From a virus (taxonomy: Duplodnaviria > Caudoviricetes), in the IMG/VR virus record IMGVR_UViG_3300025066_000007: DNA of 64,000 bases. One strand, written 5' to 3'. Every line of letters begins with the position of its first letter. The stretch's first letter is position 1. Positions 9,899 to 43,443 of the stretch are shown here, in pieces. Below the pieces are notes generated by a model. The model saw nothing but the letters and a program-made list of their open reading frames with translations, made no database searches and was not told where the DNA came from. The position numbers and the translations under genes were made by a program.

Positions 9899-11545
9899 CT
9901 AGTATTTGTGTGCTAAGGTTCCCTCTTGAGGGGGCCTCCAGCCGGCAGGAGCCTGCCAGCTTGATGGATTTTCTGGCTGCTCGGAAACTACAGCGTCAGT
10001 ATTTATGAGTAAAAGAGATATGCTTGTTGCGTTTTCTAGAGCAGTCTTTGTAACTTTTTTCGGGTCAATAACGCCTGATTTAACTAAGTCTTCAAATGAA
10101 TTTGTAGCAGCATTATATCCATAGTTATTATTAAGCTTCTTCAATACTTTGTCCACAATTTTATCGCCATCAGCATAAGCATTTGCAGCAATTTGTCGCA
10201 TAGGCCTTTCACACGCGTCTATGAGTACGCGTGCGGCTGGAACAAGCTCTTCATCCAGAAGGCTTAGATCTACTTGACTTGCCGCACGAAGAAGAGCCGT
10301 ACCTCCGCCAGGAACGTACCCCTCTTCTATTGCAGCTCTTGTTGCGCAAATAGAGTCGTCAACCCTGTCGCCCTTCTCCCTAAGCTCTAACTCCGTAGAA
10401 TATCCGACAGCAACAACTGCCGCTTTATTCTGGATAAAAGCTATCCTCTTTTTTGTATCGAGCCTTTCATTGTCTCCAATAAGCGTCAACAAGTCTTTTT
10501 TGTAAAGCTCAAGCTTTTCTTCGAATCTGGCCTGATCCCTATTTCCTTCTAATATTTTTGTGGAATATCTATCAACCGTCACTCTCTTGGCAGATCCTAG
10601 GTCAGAAACCTTGGCCTCCTTAAGGGGAACGCCTCCTTCTCCTGAGAATACTTTTGTGCCGACGAGAACAGAGAGGGCTTCTAGCCATTCATTTTGAGCG
10701 GATCCAAATATCGGAAGGCTTACAGCGACAGCCCTCAACCTACCAAGCTTATTGTTCGCAACAAGAGTAGCGAGAACCTCCTGCTTTACGGATTTGGCGA
10801 GGATTAAGACGGGAATATTGTCTTCAGATAATTGATTAAATAACCCCAGGCAAGATGTCAGATTTGAAATATCATCATTGCAAATGAGAATTTTGCAATT
10901 ATTAAGCCTAACATCTGTTTGGCCTTCTTCGGTTAGGAAGGCAGGAGTTACAAATCCAGATTTTATTTCAACTCCATCTGCAAATCTAACAGAATTTCCT
11001 GCGCCAGGAAATGCCTCTGCAACAACTGTTCCGTCCATACCTACTGCATGAAATGCTTCTGCTATTTTGCTGCCAAGCTCCGGATCATTATTTGCAGATA
11101 TTGACGCAATATTCACAAGATCCTCCAAGGAGGATACATCGATAGCCATTGTGTTTAGATTCTTGGTAATCTGTTTTAGAGCCCACTCTATTCCAATCCT
11201 AAAGTTCAAGGGACTATAGTTTTCATCAATAAGCTTACATCCCCGCTTCAAAATTTCATGAGTCAAAACTGTAGCTGTAGTGGTTCCGTCACCTGCTACG
11301 GCAGCCGTCCTTCCCGCTACCTCTTTTATGAGTTGACACGCAAGCTCTTCTACGGGCTCTTCTAAAGTAATCTCCCTTGCAACAGTGACTCCGTCTTTAG
11401 TGAGAACTGGAGCTCCAACATATTTGCCCAGAATTACATTCTTTCCTTGAGGGCCCATCGTTACTGCCACAACTTTGGCTAACTTTTCAGCGCCGGAAAG
11501 AATCTTCTTTCTTGCTTCACTCTTAAAGGTTAAATCTTTGGCCAT
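9899..11545 (-). CDS. groEL: GroEL chaperonin
   Basis: TMGPQGKNV, TKDGVTVA, AGDGTTTATVL, EEGYVPGGG. Confidence 0.96.
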   Translation of the reverse strand: MAKDLTFKSEARKKILSGAEKLAKVVAVTMGPQGKNVILGKYVGAPVLTKDGVTVAREITLEEPVEELACQLIKEVAGRTAAVAGDGTTTATVLTHEILKRGCKLIDENYSPLNFRIGIEWALKQITKNLNTMAIDVSSLEDLVNIASISANNDPELGSKIAEAFHAVGMDGTVVAEAFPGAGNSVRFADGVEIKSGFVTPAFLTEEGQTDVRLNNCKILICNDDISNLTSCLGLFNQLSEDNIPVLILAKSVKQEVLATLVANNKLGRLRAVAVSLPIFGSAQNEWLEALSVLVGTKVFSGEGGVPLKEAKVSDLGSAKRVTVDRYSTKILEGNRDQARFEEKLELYKKDLLTLIGDNERLDTKKRIAFIQNKAAVVAVGYSTELELREKGDRVDDSICATRAAIEEGYVPGGGTALLRAASQVDLSLLDEELVPAARVLIDACERPMRQIAANAYADGDKIVDKVLKKLNNNYGYNAATNSFEDLVKSGVIDPKKVTKTALENATSISLLLINTDAVVSEQPENPSSWQAPAGWRPPQEGTLAHKY

Positions 11546-17997: not shown

Positions 17998-20900
17998 TTA
18001 TTGTACTTCTGTTCCGATGATCAGCTCCCAGGTTCTCCGGAGGCCTTCGCTTACAATAATAGCCTCAGAATACTTGCTCGCCTTTAAAACTTCAGGTTTT
18101 TTGCCAACAGGCCATTGATCGCTAATTTTCGCGTCCTTTCTCAAGGTGTTCTCGACATTTTGAGAGCTATTTTTTTCGAGCTCCCTCTTCTTCTGGTAGG
18201 CTGTAAACTCACTGTAAGCGTCCTCGATTCTATCAGTATAGTACTTGGCGAGGGCCTTCTCTACATTTTTAACACCCATAACTTTCTTCCCCTTTTTTGC
18301 AGCAGAAGGGAGGGTGGGATAAACAGGACCAATAGGCTCTTGATAAACTCCGTATCCAGCAAGGGTTTCTGAATGAAGGGAATAGATCTCTTGCATAGTC
18401 AGGGTTCTATCTGAATCCTTGTCTTGGATCTCAGATAGAACATCTTCAGTAGAATGGGTTGTAGATTTATAGTCATACAGTAAGTTCCTTATCTGCATGT
18501 AAGATCTTTCATCTTCATTACTGCCGCTAACAAAATAGAAATTACCACCAGAAGTGTCTCTCAGCTTATTCCTCATATTCTTGACTTCTGAAGTCTTACC
18601 CTTAATTCTTAGGCCAAGGCTGTTGTAGTCGCCCTCTTCAACTTTCCCCTTTAGATCGGGCTCGTGCCTATTCCCATAAGGATCAAGCAAGATTTCTGGA
18701 TTTTTAACTCCAATCTTATTTGCAATATGGTCAAGTCCGTGACTCTTAATTAAGAAGTCTTTTACGAGAGTCTTAACGTCTGAGTCATATATGTCATCTC
18801 CAAGCAAAATTTGCTGTCCCGCCCACTCTTCAGAGAAGCATTCTAGAGTTAGCATCTTATTTAGCAAAACATAGTTATTCAACGGAATATATATTCCAGA
18901 CGCAACCTCGTATCCTCCGGCCTTTTCTCCGAACCCTATAGGCCCCGTTTCTACTATATCTTTTTTCTTTCTCTGGAAACTCGTTAGACCTGACCCCATA
19001 CTAACATTAAATGGCAACCCACGATACTCGCTAAACAAACTCTTCGTTCTAGCCTTAGCATAGGCCTCCGCTTTCTCTCGACTCTTGACCCCCAACTTGT
19101 CCTTTCTGTCTTGGAAGTCATTATAAACCCTCATTATATTCATCAAAAGGCCATTAGCATACTGCAGAGGTCTTCTCTGCAGCATGTCAGAGATCTCAAT
19201 GACATTTCCCTCAGATATTGCAACCTCTATATTTGCGGTTATAATTGAGAGATCATTGGCTTTGAAATTTTTTGGATCAACTTCTATCGGAATAGAAATT
19301 CCAGTAAAACTAGGGGCGCCGATAGTAGGCGGAACTAAGTTGGCCTCTCCATGCCTGACCTCCTGAGGGCCTATTGCAAATCCACTTGAACTGTTAAATC
19401 CAAATTTATCATTTATAACAGCAGAACCTTCGCTCCCAGACACGACTCTTGTCATTGGGTGATCCAGAAGGCTCAGAAGGCTTTTTGAGGCAATCTTGAG
19501 GCCGACCGTTCGACTAGGAACTCTATACAAAGAGTACTCCGGGCCAATTCCGGCATCTGTCAGCAGCTTGCGATAAACGCCCTCTTCCAAAAGAACCGGA
19601 GCCTCTCCTATGGCACTTCTTAGCTCGTCCTGGCTTGTTGCCGTCATAATTATAATAAAGCCAGCTGCCAAAAACCCATCAAAAGAAGGGTCTATTATTC
19701 CAAACGGATTCTCCTTTCCTTTCTGATCGCAAATTCTAAAAACAGGATGAGTAAACTTATTCTTTTTAAACTCGTAATGCATGGCGCTCCATGTTGGGAC
19801 TGCCATGACCCCCTCCTGTCTGAGGGACTCATGTTCAGCAGAAAGAAAGCCACTTGGAGAAAGCTTTCTTGCATACTTAGAATCTTTCCCCATAAGAATT
19901 TTAGTAACAGGTCGCACACTAAGAATCTTATTTAAGACCAAAGAGGCTTTTGCAGGAAGCAGAGAGAACTCTCGTATTAACGCGTCTTCATCTTCACCTG
20001 CTGCAGATACACCAAGACTTACGACAGGGCCTCCTTCTCTTCTGGGAGTTATCCTGTATATAGTCTCCGTATCTCCTGGCTGAACTACGTATACGGAGCC
20101 ATCCCTTCCCTTCCAGAAAGACCCTAACTCTGGAGCTAGCTTGGAAAGATGAGGGGTGGCCTTACCTCTTACCGGAGGCGTATGTGAGTATCCAAAATCC
20201 TTCAGGAGGCCTGTTATGGAGTCTGCGTTTAAGCCCGCTCCCTCATTCTCTAGTCCATGCGGAAAGCTGACCCTCTGGGTGTCTAGTTCGGCAGAAAGTT
20301 GAGTTCGAATATATTTTATCGCCAAGTCTTGGTGATACTCGTTTAAAGAAGCAGAATTAAGTCCAATTGGAATTTGTTTTATATCAATTTTCAATAAACC
20401 AATATTCGTCATAATTGTGTCAAAAATATCATCCAATGAATCTTCGTCTTCTGGCACTTCGAGAATAACCGGCTCAACGATTGGAGATACAGAGCAATAT
20501 TCGATTATAGACTCGGGCGTCAAAAAGACATCCTCTTCTACTCCTACGAATTCATAATATACATATCTTGGAGATATGTCCCTAAAGTATAGATTATAAA
20601 TTATAGAAAGCTTTTCTGCAATATAATGAGCAGAGGCAGCAGCAGCCACTCTTCCGTAATACTCTCTTCCATATTGCTTAGACAACTTTAAGGTAGTATC
20701 TGCCGATATCAACCCCTTTGTGAGATGTGCAAGATCCTTGTTTTCCGGCCCAATCAACTTGTATAATGCAATCGCTCCAGGGGATTCGAAAACTGAGCTT
20801 TCGAATTTACCATGCTTTCGTCTGCCTGAAATCAAATAGCTTCCAATTGCTCCAATTCCCCGTGCAACTTCACCTTTTGATAGAGTTTTGTCATTATTTA

Positions 20901-23900
20901 TTAAGGAGGATATTTCTTTTAGCAAAGCTTCGAAAACCTTTTCTGTAACCGTTCTTAGAAAATCTTGATCCAAAAAGAATAAAAATCTTTTTTCAGACTC
21001 AAAGCTCTCAAGGAAGCTTGAGAAGTCATATTTGTCAAAAACTGCCCTCCCTGATACTCTGCCTAATAGAGGCTCTAGATATTGATGAGTTGAGCTTATT
21101 TCTTCAAATAAATGATTTCTAGAAAAGTCAATCAGCTGAATGATGGCCTTTTCGAACTCACTCTTATTACCTTTGTATGAGTCTGAAAACGAAACGAGCT
21201 TATCTCCAAGCAATGGCGCTCGAATAACAGAGGATGAAGAAAGCCTTAAAAAATTAGAGCATGAACTAAGCATTTCTGACATAACGCGTGCAATAAATTT
21301 ATTCATTAGATCAAAAATTTGCTCGGAGGCTATACTTTTGGAATCAAGAACTGAGCCATCATCAGCTGAAGCTCTAAAATCAATTCCACCTGTGTCTGCA
21401 TACTTCTTGGCTCTATCAGATGCCTCAAAGCGTATGCCTTTTCCAGTACCTATTCCCATATCTTCAGAGGCTTCGTAGTATTCTTCAAGAATATGTCTTT
21501 TTAAAACTGTTCCGTGGGTCATAGTAACAGTTCCTGCCTCTGAGCTATTCGGGGCACCCCAAGCAAGCTTTACATCTCGCGCTCCCTTCCGAGGAAAGCT
21601 GTACTCTTCTCCGTTATATTCAAACTTTACGTCCTTAGGTCTAAGCCCACGCTTAGACCGTACTTCCGCATATGAGCGACGGGCATCTCTTCTGGTCGTT
21701 TCAGGGACGCCCTTAACAAGGAGGCCTTGATCAACTGCTGCTTTCACAGAAGCCTCGCCAGAGGCTTGGAGAAGCTTGTATAGAGAGTTCTTTGCTAAGA
21801 TGTCTTCTGTAGATGTGCTTCCAGTGCTAGTCCTATGATAGAGTTTGGTTATATCATGTAGGTAATGCTTCGCTCCAAAATGCACAGAGTTGTTTATAGT
21901 AAATTTGTGTCCATGCCTGCACCTCAATACTACCCCGCCGATAATACTTAGATCTTCTGCAGAAAACTTTACGGAAGTAACTCTTTTTGCCGCTCCAGTA
22001 AGACCAAATCTTTTACTGCTTGCTGCCATACGAAGAATAGATGCAAGCTTTTCTGTTCGCTCTGCAGCTTCGACGGATTCTAGGCTGCCGCCTCCGCCTT
22101 CTTCTCCAAGCAAATCTATAAAGAATGCCATATCTGACACATCTACTCCAAGCTTTAGCATGAAATCAATAACGGCCATTCTTCCTTCTGCACTAAGATT
22201 TCCGATAAGAGCACTGAACCCAGCGGGATCGATTGAAGACGCGCTAACCCCCGCCCCGCATACGGGGAATACGGACGTCCCTTCTGGAAGGTTCTTAAAC
22301 CCACCCATACCATCAGACGGAGGAGGGATAATGCCGCTTTCAAAGTCAAATTCATCTATCGCTAATGGGGCCTCGCTAATTGGGCCGGCCAGCGGAGTTA
22401 CCAGATAGAGACCCTCTGCGGCCATTCTATACTTTCTTATAAGAGATTCAAATTCTTCTTTATTTGAAAAAGAAAGATGGGTTGGACATCTAAAATAATT
22501 TTTGGAAAACTTCCATCCGCCACTGCTTTTCGACTTATAGTATCTCCTTATCTTTTCTGCAGTAGCCTCATCTACCTTCTCTTCCTTTACGGCCCGCTCC
22601 AATGCACCATCTAAGCTTGCCTTGCTCCGGTAGACGTTCTTGTCGGAAAAGGAGCTGGCAGCTAGTATTGGGAGGGAGGTCTTATCGGAAGGTGCCGAAC
22701 CATCTATAACTCCGGAGAGATCTACAGAAAATCCACATTGACCAAAGGATTCGCGAGATAGAGAGGAAGCCACCTCTTCATAAGGAAAGGCGCTATTTCT
22801 TCCATCACCTTCTGGGTAAGGGCAGAAGAAGCGTTGGCCCTTTATCGAAATACCTCTTGTAGTCAAAGGTATGCACCCAAGAAATCTCATAGCTTCTGCT
22901 CGCCTCAAAAGCCCCTCTGCCGATTTCTCAAACCTATCCGAAGAAATTAGGTCTTCGATTTCATCCCAAGTCATGCTTTCGTTTGACCTCTTATATATGG
23001 AGCTCCAGGCCTCTTTGATTCTCTTTCCGCCTACTACGGAAATGTAGCTTTTGGGAGGCGCAAATCTAGCCCCTGACGCTCTAATCTTCTCGATAGGGAG
23101 AGGTTCAACTTTTCCAACAACAAGCCTGCCGTCCTTATCCTTTTTAGTCTCCTTCTTAAAGAGAGAGTAAGTTTGCACCTGAATGTCAATCTTGCTCATC
23201 TTGGCTTCAATCGTTTTTCTTTTTCTCTGTTCTTCAGTGCCAGGCTGTTTCTCGAACCCATTGACAATAGTCTTTCCACATACAGTACAGCTTATAAGCT
23301 CAGCCTTAATCTGAGGGACAGACTCCTTTTTTATTGTATAATAAATTCTCTCTTTTCCAATATTAGAGGTTATAAAGCCGCACATTCCTCTTGAGCTAGA
23401 AAAAGATTCTCCTGCCAAATACTCTTTGGCCTTACTCTCTATACTCTTGCGAAAAGCATTATAGATTTTATCGTGAAAAGTTGATGAGAAGCCATACTCA
23501 TACATTTTCTTAATACTCTCTGAGTATTTCTTGCTATACTTAAACTCATCAATTTTCTTCTGGAGAAAGGTGCCTAGGCTAAGATCTGGAAGCGCTATAT
23601 GATATAAAATTGAATATATTGAGGAGAGATAAGGATCCTCTATTAAATGATTCGTCAAGTAGATCTTATCGTCTAGTTTTTCTCCTTGATTTTTTACAAA
23701 AAGATCTCTCATTTTAATAGATGATACAAATCTATCAAAGTTATCTGCTAGATTCTGACGATGAGCCTCTACTCTTTCAACTGTATCACGATCCCCATGC
23801 TTCTCATTGTTACGAGTATAGTCCGACCATTCTTTCGCTTTTTCTTCGAAACTTTTTAACTCTACTTTTATGCCAGATAGCAACTCATTTGTATATTCAG

Positions 23901-24840
23901 TTGAATATACAAAAACTCCATCTGGACCAGTCTTTCCTCCTAAAGCCTTTTCGTTATACTTCTTGAAAAATGCAGAAAATGTAATCGGAGTAACTTCTGC
24001 ACCTTCCTGTATGGCCTTGTCAAACAAGGACTTATAGGAGTAGGGCGACGTATCTGAGATAAATGCCCGAGAAGATGTTACCAGTGATCGCTGCAATCTA
24101 CCATAGGTCTTTCTCTTAAATAGGGCAGGCTTACGAACAAGCTCTTTGTCGAAGACCGAAATCTCTACCATGCCTTTCGGAGGATGCTCTCTAGGCTCTA
24201 GCTCTTCTAGCAAGGCTGAGGGCAGATCTTTCTCACCTGATTCTTCTTCGAAAATATTAATCGCGTCAGGTATAGGCTCCTTTTCTGCTTCTTTTTTTTC
24301 GCTTAAGAAGTAAGACCTAACTTCTTCAAAGGGCGTCTCTATAAAGCCTCTTATTCCGGCTATCCGGAATAAGAGTAATACTGGGGCCTCAAGATGATCG
24401 GGAAGCGAATAGCCCTGAAACCGAATAACAAAATCGTCATAAGCTGCCGAAAGAGCCTCCGTAATACCGCTTGAGCCAGAAGAGAGAAACGCCTTTTCGG
24501 CAGCTTCTATAAGAATATCTTTTTGTTGCTCGTAATCATATTCTACCTCAGCCTCACTCAGACCCTCCTCGTAAGACCCTTCTTCATAAGACTCTTCTCC
24601 GTAAGACCCTTCTTCATAAGACTCTTCTCCGTAAAAGCCTATCTCCTCCTCGCCTCTTTCTTCATAAGAATCTTCCTCTTCAGACATCAGCATTGGAAGA
24701 ATATTAAATACTTGGTTTAAGTATTTATGGTATTCTTCGAGGGTGGAGAGAGAGTCGTCTAAGCGGGCCTCTTCAAAAGTTTCGGGAAAATGCTCTTTGC
24801 TCGCCTCTACTGCAGTCTCTAGTTTTGATTTACTGTTCAT
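17998..24840 (-). CDS. Very large hypothetical protein (2280 aa) with scattered Cys/His clusters
   Basis: Continuous ORF; no motif I can assign. Confidence 0.85.
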   Translation of the reverse strand: MNSKSKLETAVEASKEHFPETFEEARLDDSLSTLEEYHKYLNQVFNILPMLMSEEEDSYEERGEEEIGFYGEESYEEGSYGEESYEEGSYEEGLSEAEVEYDYEQQKDILIEAAEKAFLSSGSSGITEALSAAYDDFVIRFQGYSLPDHLEAPVLLLFRIAGIRGFIETPFEEVRSYFLSEKKEAEKEPIPDAINIFEEESGEKDLPSALLEELEPREHPPKGMVEISVFDKELVRKPALFKRKTYGRLQRSLVTSSRAFISDTSPYSYKSLFDKAIQEGAEVTPITFSAFFKKYNEKALGGKTGPDGVFVYSTEYTNELLSGIKVELKSFEEKAKEWSDYTRNNEKHGDRDTVERVEAHRQNLADNFDRFVSSIKMRDLFVKNQGEKLDDKIYLTNHLIEDPYLSSIYSILYHIALPDLSLGTFLQKKIDEFKYSKKYSESIKKMYEYGFSSTFHDKIYNAFRKSIESKAKEYLAGESFSSSRGMCGFITSNIGKERIYYTIKKESVPQIKAELISCTVCGKTIVNGFEKQPGTEEQRKRKTIEAKMSKIDIQVQTYSLFKKETKKDKDGRLVVGKVEPLPIEKIRASGARFAPPKSYISVVGGKRIKEAWSSIYKRSNESMTWDEIEDLISSDRFEKSAEGLLRRAEAMRFLGCIPLTTRGISIKGQRFFCPYPEGDGRNSAFPYEEVASSLSRESFGQCGFSVDLSGVIDGSAPSDKTSLPILAASSFSDKNVYRSKASLDGALERAVKEEKVDEATAEKIRRYYKSKSSGGWKFSKNYFRCPTHLSFSNKEEFESLIRKYRMAAEGLYLVTPLAGPISEAPLAIDEFDFESGIIPPPSDGMGGFKNLPEGTSVFPVCGAGVSASSIDPAGFSALIGNLSAEGRMAVIDFMLKLGVDVSDMAFFIDLLGEEGGGGSLESVEAAERTEKLASILRMAASSKRFGLTGAAKRVTSVKFSAEDLSIIGGVVLRCRHGHKFTINNSVHFGAKHYLHDITKLYHRTSTGSTSTEDILAKNSLYKLLQASGEASVKAAVDQGLLVKGVPETTRRDARRSYAEVRSKRGLRPKDVKFEYNGEEYSFPRKGARDVKLAWGAPNSSEAGTVTMTHGTVLKRHILEEYYEASEDMGIGTGKGIRFEASDRAKKYADTGGIDFRASADDGSVLDSKSIASEQIFDLMNKFIARVMSEMLSSCSNFLRLSSSSVIRAPLLGDKLVSFSDSYKGNKSEFEKAIIQLIDFSRNHLFEEISSTHQYLEPLLGRVSGRAVFDKYDFSSFLESFESEKRFLFFLDQDFLRTVTEKVFEALLKEISSLINNDKTLSKGEVARGIGAIGSYLISGRRKHGKFESSVFESPGAIALYKLIGPENKDLAHLTKGLISADTTLKLSKQYGREYYGRVAAAASAHYIAEKLSIIYNLYFRDISPRYVYYEFVGVEEDVFLTPESIIEYCSVSPIVEPVILEVPEDEDSLDDIFDTIMTNIGLLKIDIKQIPIGLNSASLNEYHQDLAIKYIRTQLSAELDTQRVSFPHGLENEGAGLNADSITGLLKDFGYSHTPPVRGKATPHLSKLAPELGSFWKGRDGSVYVVQPGDTETIYRITPRREGGPVVSLGVSAAGEDEDALIREFSLLPAKASLVLNKILSVRPVTKILMGKDSKYARKLSPSGFLSAEHESLRQEGVMAVPTWSAMHYEFKKNKFTHPVFRICDQKGKENPFGIIDPSFDGFLAAGFIIIMTATSQDELRSAIGEAPVLLEEGVYRKLLTDAGIGPEYSLYRVPSRTVGLKIASKSLLSLLDHPMTRVVSGSEGSAVINDKFGFNSSSGFAIGPQEVRHGEANLVPPTIGAPSFTGISIPIEVDPKNFKANDLSIITANIEVAISEGNVIEISDMLQRRPLQYANGLLMNIMRVYNDFQDRKDKLGVKSREKAEAYAKARTKSLFSEYRGLPFNVSMGSGLTSFQRKKKDIVETGPIGFGEKAGGYEVASGIYIPLNNYVLLNKMLTLECFSEEWAGQQILLGDDIYDSDVKTLVKDFLIKSHGLDHIANKIGVKNPEILLDPYGNRHEPDLKGKVEEGDYNSLGLRIKGKTSEVKNMRNKLRDTSGGNFYFVSGSNEDERSYMQIRNLLYDYKSTTHSTEDVLSEIQDKDSDRTLTMQEIYSLHSETLAGYGVYQEPIGPVYPTLPSAAKKGKKVMGVKNVEKALAKYYTDRIEDAYSEFTAYQKKRELEKNSSQNVENTLRKDAKISDQWPVGKKPEVLKASKYSEAIIVSEGLRRTWELIIGTEVQ
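24571..24630. repeat. Perfect 30-bp tandem duplication within a CDS
   Basis: GTAAGACCCTTCTTCATAAGACTCTTCTCC x2, encoding GEESYEEGSY. Confidence 0.9.
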
Positions 24841-40909: not shown

Positions 40910-41410
40910 TTAAATCTCCTTTATAGTTATTGTTTTCGGCTCTTCTTCTGCTTTGCGCGGAATTACTAATTCTAAAAGTCCATTTTTCATCGAAGCAGAC
41001 ATACGTCCAACATTAAATGTTGGATTTATGTAAAACTTAGCCTTAAAGTTTCTTCTGGCAATTCCCCTTACGATCATCCCTCTTTGCACCACTATATTTG
41101 GAGCCTTTGCAGGGTATTCTTCTTGATCAGATAATGCCTCATGCATTTCCTCTGCGTCTATTTTGTTTCCAGATCCAGTTATAAAAACTTCATTGCCCTT
41201 TGCTTTGAGCACAATGTCATCAGGAGAATACCCTGCAAGCGCAAAGGCCATATGAAACCCCTCGACATCACACCACTGATCACACCTTGGAAACTTTCCT
41301 GATGAAGAAACCTTCTTATTAGAAGAAACCTCTCTGAAGAACTCATCATCTATCCACAGCAAATCTAGAACTCTAGCCGGAATTGAGACCCTGCTAATAA
41401 CATCTTTCAT
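40910..41410 (-). CDS. Small heat-shock protein (Hsp20)
   Basis: ALAGYSPDDI..RGIARRNF..ASMKNGLLELVIPR. Confidence 0.88.
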   Translation of the reverse strand: MKDVISRVSIPARVLDLLWIDDEFFREVSSNKKVSSSGKFPRCDQWCDVEGFHMAFALAGYSPDDIVLKAKGNEVFITGSGNKIDAEEMHEALSDQEEYPAKAPNIVVQRGMIVRGIARRNFKAKFYINPTFNVGRMSASMKNGLLELVIPRKAEEEPKTITIKEI

Positions 41411-42162: not shown

Positions 42163-42838
42163 TTATATTGTAATTTCACCTTTGACGAACCTACTTAGCT
42201 TTTGAGTTTTTCCGGTTCGATGATCGGTCACCTTGTCTCGCTGAACTTGATAAGTCCTTATCTTATCTCCTCTCATTCCAGAGCCAACCTGAGAGGCTCT
42301 CAGCTCAGACCTTCGTCTGCTGGCTGCGCTCCTTTCGATCTCATATAGCTTAGCTCGAAGAAGCCTTAGAGCATAGTCTTTGTTCAAGTGTTGTGAACGC
42401 TCTGATTCGCATCGAATGCTTATTTGTGTTGGAATATGTTTCAGCTGAACGGCAGAGTCAGTTACATTTCTATGCTGCCCGCCCGCTCCAGATCCACGGC
42501 AAGTCTTCCACTCAAGGTCTTTCTTGTCGATCTTTACTGATGCTCTTTTTGGCTCTGTTAGAATTGCAACCGTTATAGTCGAAGTGTGAACTCTGCCTCG
42601 TTTGTCAAGGGGAGAAACTCTTTGCCAGCGATGGCCTCCTGCTTCTTTCTCAAAGATCTTTAAAGCGTTCTTTCCTTCGATCAAAGCTATGCTAATTCCT
42701 GGGCGTGATTCTATTATTTTCAGGCTAAAGATAATTTCGGCGGCAGACCTTGCCGTAAATGCCGAGTTGATCTTTAACAAGAAGTTTGCTTTCTTTTCCG
42801 CCTTCAGCGGCTCTAATCTCTAATATAATAGAATTCAT
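42163..42838 (-). CDS. Class I peptide chain release factor-like protein (domains 2-4), about 224 aa via predicted +1 frameshift
   Basis: Frame 0 from ATG 42838: MNSIILEIRAAEGG...RRNYL*; +1 frame: EAGGHRWQRVSPLD..GRVHTS, GSGAGGQHRNVTDSAV, ERSQHLNK, KIRTY. Confidence 0.88.
42724..42733 (-). other. Predicted programmed +1 frameshift site TAT-CTT-TAG-C
   Basis: Joins the two release-factor halves; same CUU-U slippage core as bacterial prfB. Confidence 0.75.
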
Positions 42839-42858
42839 CTTCCTTTTCTCCTTTATAT

Positions 42859-43443
42859 TTATTCTGGCTTAACTCCAGAGGCTAATGCTATTTTGCAAAT
42901 ATGCTCTAGCCTTTCTATGTGACAAAATGCTTCCCACGGGTTTTTCCCAATAGCACAAGCTCCATGCGCAGTTTGGCCAACAATATCATAATAGACCTCT
43001 CCATTACGTTGCATTTGAAAAAATGTATCATCTGCCAAGCCTTTACTTGTCGCCTCCCAAAGTCCTACATTCTTCCCAACTTTTGTATAGCGATATACTT
43101 CCGGAAACTTCTTTGCTAATGCCTGCAGATTCCACCCTGCCATCATCGCTGCAACAATATAGGTTGGATGCAGATGAAGCACGCATCTCGTTCCCTTGTG
43201 ACTCTTCTGCAAAAGCCAATGCATCTCTAGCTCTCCAGAGGCATTCTTATTCAGGCCAAGCTTTCCTCTGGAAATTGGAATTCTAAGAATAGATTCTGGA
43301 TAAATGATATTCTTTCTAACTCCAGACGGAGTTATGTAGAGAGTTTTTTTCTCTGACCTCTTTAAAGAGCAGTTCCCGTCCTTGGTAGTTATCCAGTTTC
43401 TATCGTATGCCTCTCGCATAACATCGCCAATAGCAGTTAACAT
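42859..43443 (-). CDS. Class II aldolase/adducin-family metalloenzyme
   Basis: DGNCS..ITPSG..ASGELEMH..HLHPTY..HGACAIG. Confidence 0.85.
   Translation of the reverse strand: MLTAIGDVMREAYDRNWITTKDGNCSLKRSEKKTLYITPSGVRKNIIYPESILRIPISRGKLGLNKNASGELEMHWLLQKSHKGTRCVLHLHPTYIVAAMMAGWNLQALAKKFPEVYRYTKVGKNVGLWEATSKGLADDTFFQMQRNGEVYYDIVGQTAHGACAIGKNPWEAFCHIERLEHICKIALASGVKPE

Follow-up and report, generated by a model that had tools for sequence, protein, structure and literature searches.

A phage gene for an RF1-like release factor probably expressed through +1 frameshifting at a UAG codon

The window analyzed here, a stretch of 64,000 nucleotides, belongs to a 106-kb IMG/VR virus record with a CheckV completeness of about 32%, and encodes a release factor on its minus strand in two reading frames. 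The phage is of marine origin. A ribosome-binding region (AAAGGAG...AAGGAAG; 42839..42854, minus strand; GGAG at 42851-42848) comes after the TAA (42861-42859) of an upstream Aldolase_II gene and adjoins an ATG start codon at 42838-42836. From there ORF1 extends in frame 0 for 37 codons (MNSIILEIRAAEGG...CRRNYL; 42728..42838, minus strand) and encodes the first strand and helix alpha-5 of release factor domain 2, including the conserved GG-x-E tip. Its 3' end reads CGC CGA AAT TAT CTT and is followed by TAG (42727-42725) and C (42724). The resulting shift cassette TAT CTT TAG C (42724..42733, minus strand) would place UAU in the E site, CUU in the P site, UAG in the A site, and C in the +4 position. 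The +1 frame is open from the AGC at 42726-42724 onward, and ORF2 (42166..42726, minus strand) comprises 187 codons beginning with this AGC (Ser38), encodes the rest of domain 2/4 and domain 3, and ends with a TAA stop at 42165-42163. When CTT-T is read as one step, the two ORFs are joined into a product of 224 aa. The gene thus has the arrangement that defines prfB-type shift sites, namely a CUU directly before an in-frame stop, with the homologous protein going on in the +1 frame. A preliminary description of this locus had given the ribosome-binding site, the ATG at 42838, and the end of ORF1 at TAT CTT TAG C, all of which are exact to the base. It had also proposed that a +1 slip (CUU to UUU) at the UAG is needed for a full product of about 224 aa carrying HRWQR and GGQ, in agreement with the course of the +1 frame down to the TAA and with the alignment to RF1 described below.

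The phage uses the standard genetic code, with 93.5% of the sequence coding, ORF ends distributed over TAA (66), TAG (29), and TGA (25; n = 120), and no tRNA genes in the contig. With 29 of 120 ORF ends, TAG is a genuine stop codon in this phage. The same ORF2 protein was found on 13 contigs, and two contigs from other JGI samples (L087, L088) are identical to the window through the junction.

The joined product matches the Pfam RF-1 domain (PF00472, E 4.9e-33) over residues 99-207 and the C-terminal half of the PCRF domain (PF03462, model positions 100-194 of 194, E 2e-18). The GGQ motif for peptidyl-tRNA hydrolysis, read from the sequence within PF00472, occupies residues 119-121 (42475..42483, minus strand), and its column is invariant in the family alignment A1. 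An alignment to Thermotoga RF1 (1rq0/2fvo; phmmer E 5e-49) covers residues 4-221 with no gap at the junction, and the shift site corresponds to the end of helix alpha-5 in domain 2, approximately 125 residues downstream of the prfB site. Among the NCBIfam models the prfA family scored highest (228 bits), followed by prfB (165) and prfH (97), and ArfB was matched as well, but none of these models was passed. The scores for the RF1 equivalogs were 218 bits against a cut-off of 423 (TIGR00019) and 228 against 400 (NF001859), those for RF2 165 against 370 (TIGR00020), and those for PrfH 97 against 167 (TIGR03072). Since all NCBIfam alignments begin at about model position 105-116, domain 1 is absent, and the factor starts at about RF1 residue 88-110.

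The codon-reading loop of the window factor is HRWQRVSPLDKRGRVHTS. According to the alignment, the tripeptide "anticodon" position (TCT CCC CTT; 42607..42615, minus strand) is occupied by Ser-Pro-Leu at residues 75-77 instead of the PxT of RF1. This SPL agrees with the SPF of RF2 in the first two residues only, and it is preceded by a Gln of the RF1 type (HRWQR), which is retained, as is the His-Thr after the tripeptide. Within the 115 frameshifted loci of the family described below, the SPL loop is found in the window alone, and most relatives have PPT or PPN. Judged by its sequence, the window factor is RF1-like overall despite SPL in place of PxT. According to the rules derived from RF1/RF2 swaps, a Ser in the first tripeptide position should make either purine (A or G) acceptable at the second base of the stop codon, and the retained Gln and Thr of the RF1 type should do likewise for the third base. 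The hybrid reading head may broaden or change the set of stops that are read.

A profile scan of IMG/VR recovered 80 loci, 71 of them distinct. In 54 of these 71, CTT plus a stop codon is located at the same codon and followed by a continuation in the +1 frame (CTT TGA, 40; CTT TAG, 12; CTT TAA, 2), and one further CTT TAG locus has an extra downstream indel. Fourteen loci are in frame with a sense codon at the shift position, and two are in frame with a stop at the shift codon (TAG in L009 and TGA in L011). These two sister members without a frameshift (L009:1501-2184, L011:1501-2184) read TAT TAG ATG and CTA TGA CTG, respectively, around the stop at codon 38, a layout for readthrough regulation of a release factor that was said to be unknown in bacteria in a 2016 review (PMC5009743). 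A scan of genomes, represented by one per species, added 80 loci, mostly from Myxococcota MAGs but also from Nannocystis isolates, with a complete chromosome among them. The site is present in 47 of these loci (35 CTT TGA, 12 CTT TAG), including Nannocystis isolates; N. exedens and N. punicea have CTT TGA C. After de-duplication the combined set contains 115 frameshifted loci (82 TGA, 30 TAG, and 3 TAA), all with uninterrupted joined products of about 216-235 aa that have no further lesion. The occurrence of CTT, a stop, and a +1 continuation at one codon in 115 distinct homologous loci is far beyond chance. The concern raised in the preliminary description that the homologues might all be single-frame genes lacking a shift site proved unfounded, and the conserved CTT-TAG that it proposed to look for is indeed present at this codon, in 30 of the 115 loci.

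Homologues in the databases number roughly 8,000. The best 120 matches in a collection of 5.8 billion proteins comprise 78 ORF2-only calls and 42 single-frame proteins. The out-of-frame N-termini of the former lead into F-D/E at TGA sites, F-S at TAG sites, and F-N at TAA sites. Frameshifted release factor genes are systematically mis-annotated as N-terminally truncated ORFs. In INPHARED, no cultured phage with a close frameshifted member was found, and matches of the Pseudomonas phiPsa type span the GGQ domain only. The family is not restricted to phages, since a syntenic chromosomal locus exists in Nannocystis, where the frameshifted gene is present at the same place in 5-6 species (L146, L150, L153, L160, L164, L165). 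Myxococcota dominate the genome matches.

Approximately 80% of the sites carry a GGAGG-like motif 3 nt 5' of CTT, with similar proportions in each stop class; none is found upstream of CTT in the window (CGC CGA AAT TAT). A C occupies the +4 position at 29 of the 30 TAG sites, even though AGT would encode the same amino acid as AGC, and at 61 of the 82 TGA sites. Stop type and loop type are unlinked across the 115 loci, with PPT loops making up 63% of both the UGA and the UAG class. The closest relatives of the window gene (L003/L007, 69-77% identity) have TCT CTT TAG C and an SPT loop, the close relatives L005/L006 combine GGAGG TCT CTT TGA G with a PPT loop, and a closely related huge phage (LR745208.1) has GGAGG GGT CTT TGA C. 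Contigs nearly identical to L003/L007 (L004/L008) contain one extra base within a G run close to GGHR, downstream of the shift site; this base moves the rest of the gene into a third frame and is probably an assembly error or the mark of a dead copy. In four lineages of the family (L001, L050/L058, L060, L081) the tripeptide loop is deleted (e.g., HRVQRTSNGRIHSS), with GGQ and the shift site kept, and these factors may have left canonical stop-codon reading. A separate clade without the shift site (L002, L057, L063, L071-L074, L078, L084, L085) contains in-frame TGA codons inside the release factor gene itself, as would be expected of phages with a recoded TGA in which an RF1-type factor is produced only once TGA suppression is on.

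Both ORFs are under purifying selection. In the comparison of the window with L003, dN/dS of ORF1 (window 42728-42838, L003:3001-3111) is 0.14, and pN and pS of ORF2 are 0.18 and 0.79, respectively. In all 17 sister pairs, each of the two ORFs has a much lower pN than pS. The pS of ORF1 in the comparison with L003 is 0.37, about half that of ORF2, even though this pair lacks the Shine-Dalgarno (SD) cassette. A lower synonymous divergence in ORF1 was also observed in 13 of 17 other sister pairs, so the RNA of ORF1 may be subject to some additional constraint.

In the maximum-likelihood tree, from which the history of the family was read, the clade with the in-frame TGA codons, probably code-4 phages, branches apart with a support of 100/99. 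Within the main clade, the distribution of sites makes the frameshift look ancestral. UAG sites arose by at least five changes from UGA on well-supported branches. Several sister pairs differ in stop type (L067/L070, L064/L075, L062/L040, L036/L050), and TAA intermediates are present. The frameshift was lost several times with the gene kept (L026, L010, L016, L033, L048). With its UAG, its missing SD motif, and its SPL loop, the window copy is a derived member of the family.

The RF2 frameshift is the textbook example of recoding by which a gene gauges the level of its own product, and descriptions of it treat it as peculiar to prfB and as bound strictly to UGA. The window cassette shares with that of E. 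coli prfB (AGG GGG TAT CTT TGA C) the slippery CUU, the A-site stop, the C at +4, the +1 shift into a class-I release factor, and also the UAU codon in the E site. Most relatives additionally share the GGAGG motif and its 3-nt spacer with prfB, whereas the window has no internal SD; the sequence just upstream of the slip site bears out the preliminary description on this point. The stop in prfB is UGA, rarely UAA, and is read by the encoded factor, whereas the window has UAG. Furthermore, the prfB site is found at codon 25/26, in domain 1, whereas the window site aligns to about prfB model position 150, inside domain 2 as had been stated previously. The genes of the window family are RF1-like and lack domain 1, and their stop is labile and does not match the predicted specificity of the factor. 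In a survey from 2025, 98.6% of 8,164 prfB sites had TGA, the rest TAA, and none TAG (PMC12421855); the family analyzed here thus includes, besides UAA, a stop that was never seen in prfB surveys (0/8,164). The cassette had initially been taken for an independently evolved device. An origin separate from prfB is plausible, because the site lies in domain 2 and not at codon 25/26 of domain 1, but the device is not a one-off of this phage, since it is shared by the family and UAG arose repeatedly from UGA.

We consider it quite probable that the locus encodes a class-I release factor of 224 aa, of RF1 ancestry and without domain 1, which is made only via a programmed +1 frameshift tied to slow termination at UAG. 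Given that the cassette has the anatomy known from prfB, the best-supported mechanism is one in which re-pairing of tRNA-Leu from CUU to UUU competes with termination at UAG-C. A ribosome would translate the 37 codons of ORF1 and halt once UAG-C enters the A site, with the CUU in the P site occupied by peptidyl-tRNA-Leu. Prompt action of a release factor would then liberate a 37-aa peptide. If termination were slow, the tRNA could re-pair on UUU, Ser-tRNA would read AGC, and the full factor would be made, so that a lower capacity for termination at UAG would presumably result in more synthesis of the factor. The UAG could be read by host RF1, by the phage factor, or by both, and the phage factor would probably add termination capacity during infection. 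The family as a whole cannot rely on strict self-sensing, because most members combine an RF1-type PxT loop with a UGA site, and the type of stop is independent of the loop. This leaves three options: the input may be a host factor (RF2 at UGA, RF1 at UAG), the short factors may read a broader set of stops than their motif implies, or the shift may merely attenuate expression.

The efficiency of shifting in the window may be low, as it lacks the GGAGG stimulator of most relatives. SD-like motifs do precede 53% of the ORFs of this phage, compared to a background of 21%, and the missing SD at the slip site is therefore a real difference. The AU-rich UAU in the E site may partly offset it. An RNA structure was also considered as a substitute stimulator. 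In the minimum free energy fold, the shift site pairs with the upstream sequence GUUAAAGAU, and a small hairpin ends 7 nt 5' of CUU, but the z-score of the fold (-1.12) is not significant. Together with the lack of real covariation in a two-sequence comparison, this led us to reject an RNA stimulator in place of the SD.

A wider interpretation, which we put forward only tentatively, holds that the family constitutes a second class of recoding-controlled release factor genes, independent of prfB, in which either the reading heads are relaxed or omnipotent or one particular host release factor provides the input through its activity. In this class, codon 38 could serve as a +1 shift site at UGA, UAG, or UAA, or as an in-frame UGA or UAG. 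The two cases are considered because stops are exchanged freely and independently of the recognition loop. In the first case the factors would read all three stops, and SPL, SPT, and PPN heads would be naturally relaxed or omnipotent. In the second, the activity of the chosen host factor would switch on the phage's own factor. The window, with its SD-less UAG site and SPL loop, would then represent the most derived form.

It seems unlikely that the frameshift, although real, serves as a fixed attenuator or timer which keeps a potentially toxic release factor low, with no feedback or meaningful response to termination. Such a role would be consistent with the interchangeability of the stop within the family (TGA, TAG, and TAA, with at least five switches) and its lack of linkage to the recognition loop, with the repeated loss of the frameshift without gene loss in the five cases listed above, and with the toxicity reported for RF2 overexpression in B. 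subtilis (PMC12421855). However, a shift at any stop codon competes kinetically with release factors and hence has a built-in dependence on the rate of termination, and since TAG is almost always followed by C, a weak context for termination, selection seems to act on the balance between termination and slippage. For prfB, this kinetic competition between shifting at the stop codon and release factors is established.

Far less probable is the translation of ORF2 alone from an internal start codon (e.g., TTG at 42780), with ORF1 encoding a separate small peptide. The +1 frame is open upstream to this TTG and gene callers annotate ORF2 alone, but the starts they choose are scattered and unconserved, and many relatives lack one near the junction. 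Moreover, the best-conserved portion of domain 2 (EIRAAEGG and helix alpha-5 with the first-base reading tip) lies in ORF1, which is under purifying selection in frame 0 and is contiguous with the remainder of the gene in the in-frame relatives. Least credible of all is a pseudogene or a sequencing or assembly error behind the one-base offset: indels do occur in metagenome assemblies, as the extra base in L004/L008 compared to their near-twins L003/L007 illustrates, but the junction is identical on independent contigs, the same site recurs in 115 diverged loci including finished isolate genomes, and both ORFs are under purifying selection with no other lesions, so that the window gene is neither an error nor a pseudogene.

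Among known release factors, RF1 (prfA) provides the best HMM and PDB matches of the window factor and shares with it GGQ and the residues that flank the tripeptide, an RF1-type Gln on the N-terminal and a His-Thr on the C-terminal side. The window factor differs from RF1 by the absence of domain 1, the score below the cut-off, SPL for PxT, and its frameshift-dependent expression. PrfH (RFH), the RtcB-linked rescue factor, is likewise short, of class-I type, and devoid of domain 1, whereas the window family keeps a canonical-looking codon-reading head, the contig contains no RtcB, and no conserved partner gene was found. The release factors of recoded phages (Lak, Agate, Jade) are also phage-encoded and tied to stop decoding in the infected cell. 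In contrast to these phages, the window phage uses the standard code; a sister clade (L002 and others) has the in-frame TGA codons mentioned above.

The searchable literature contained no account of a frameshifted phage or RF1-like release factor. A counterpart of RF2 regulation for RF1 and UAG was called unknown in a review of recoding from 2016 (PMC5009743), the preprint of Borges et al. lists phage RF1 and RF2 genes without mention of a frameshift (10.1101/2021.08.26.457843), and a review of release factor evolution mentions neither phages nor frameshifts (PMC6514570). The family presents the RF2-type trick at a different place and in a different release factor lineage, distributed over large phages and myxobacteria, with a stop that is free to change, also to UAG. 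It offers a natural test bed for +1 shifting at stop codons, with or without an SD and at UAG versus UGA. In addition, it allows asking whether phages monitor the activity of host RF1 or RF2, and whether stop specificity is relaxed in factors that lack domain 1 and have non-canonical tripeptides.

The release factor gene is located downstream of the ORF at 42859-43443, which matches Aldolase_II (PF00596), and its other neighbours encode a DUF3310 protein, a DUF1360-like protein, HSP20, and a KH (KhpA/B) protein. Neither a match to RtcB (PF01139) nor a second release factor gene was found in the contig. An all-against-all comparison of flanking ORFs at approximately 150 loci revealed no conserved partner gene beyond close relatives, and the neighbouring genes in Nannocystis had no Pfam matches. 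Since the contig represents only about 32% of the estimated genome, the phage may be a jumbo phage. Elsewhere in the window, genes for GroEL, a UvsX-like recombinase, an FtsK-like ATPase, and baseplate proteins are present. The GroEL-type chaperonin is encoded at 9899-11545 and HSP20 at 40910-41410, and a single ORF of 2,280 aa, which has no assigned function, occupies positions 17998-24840.
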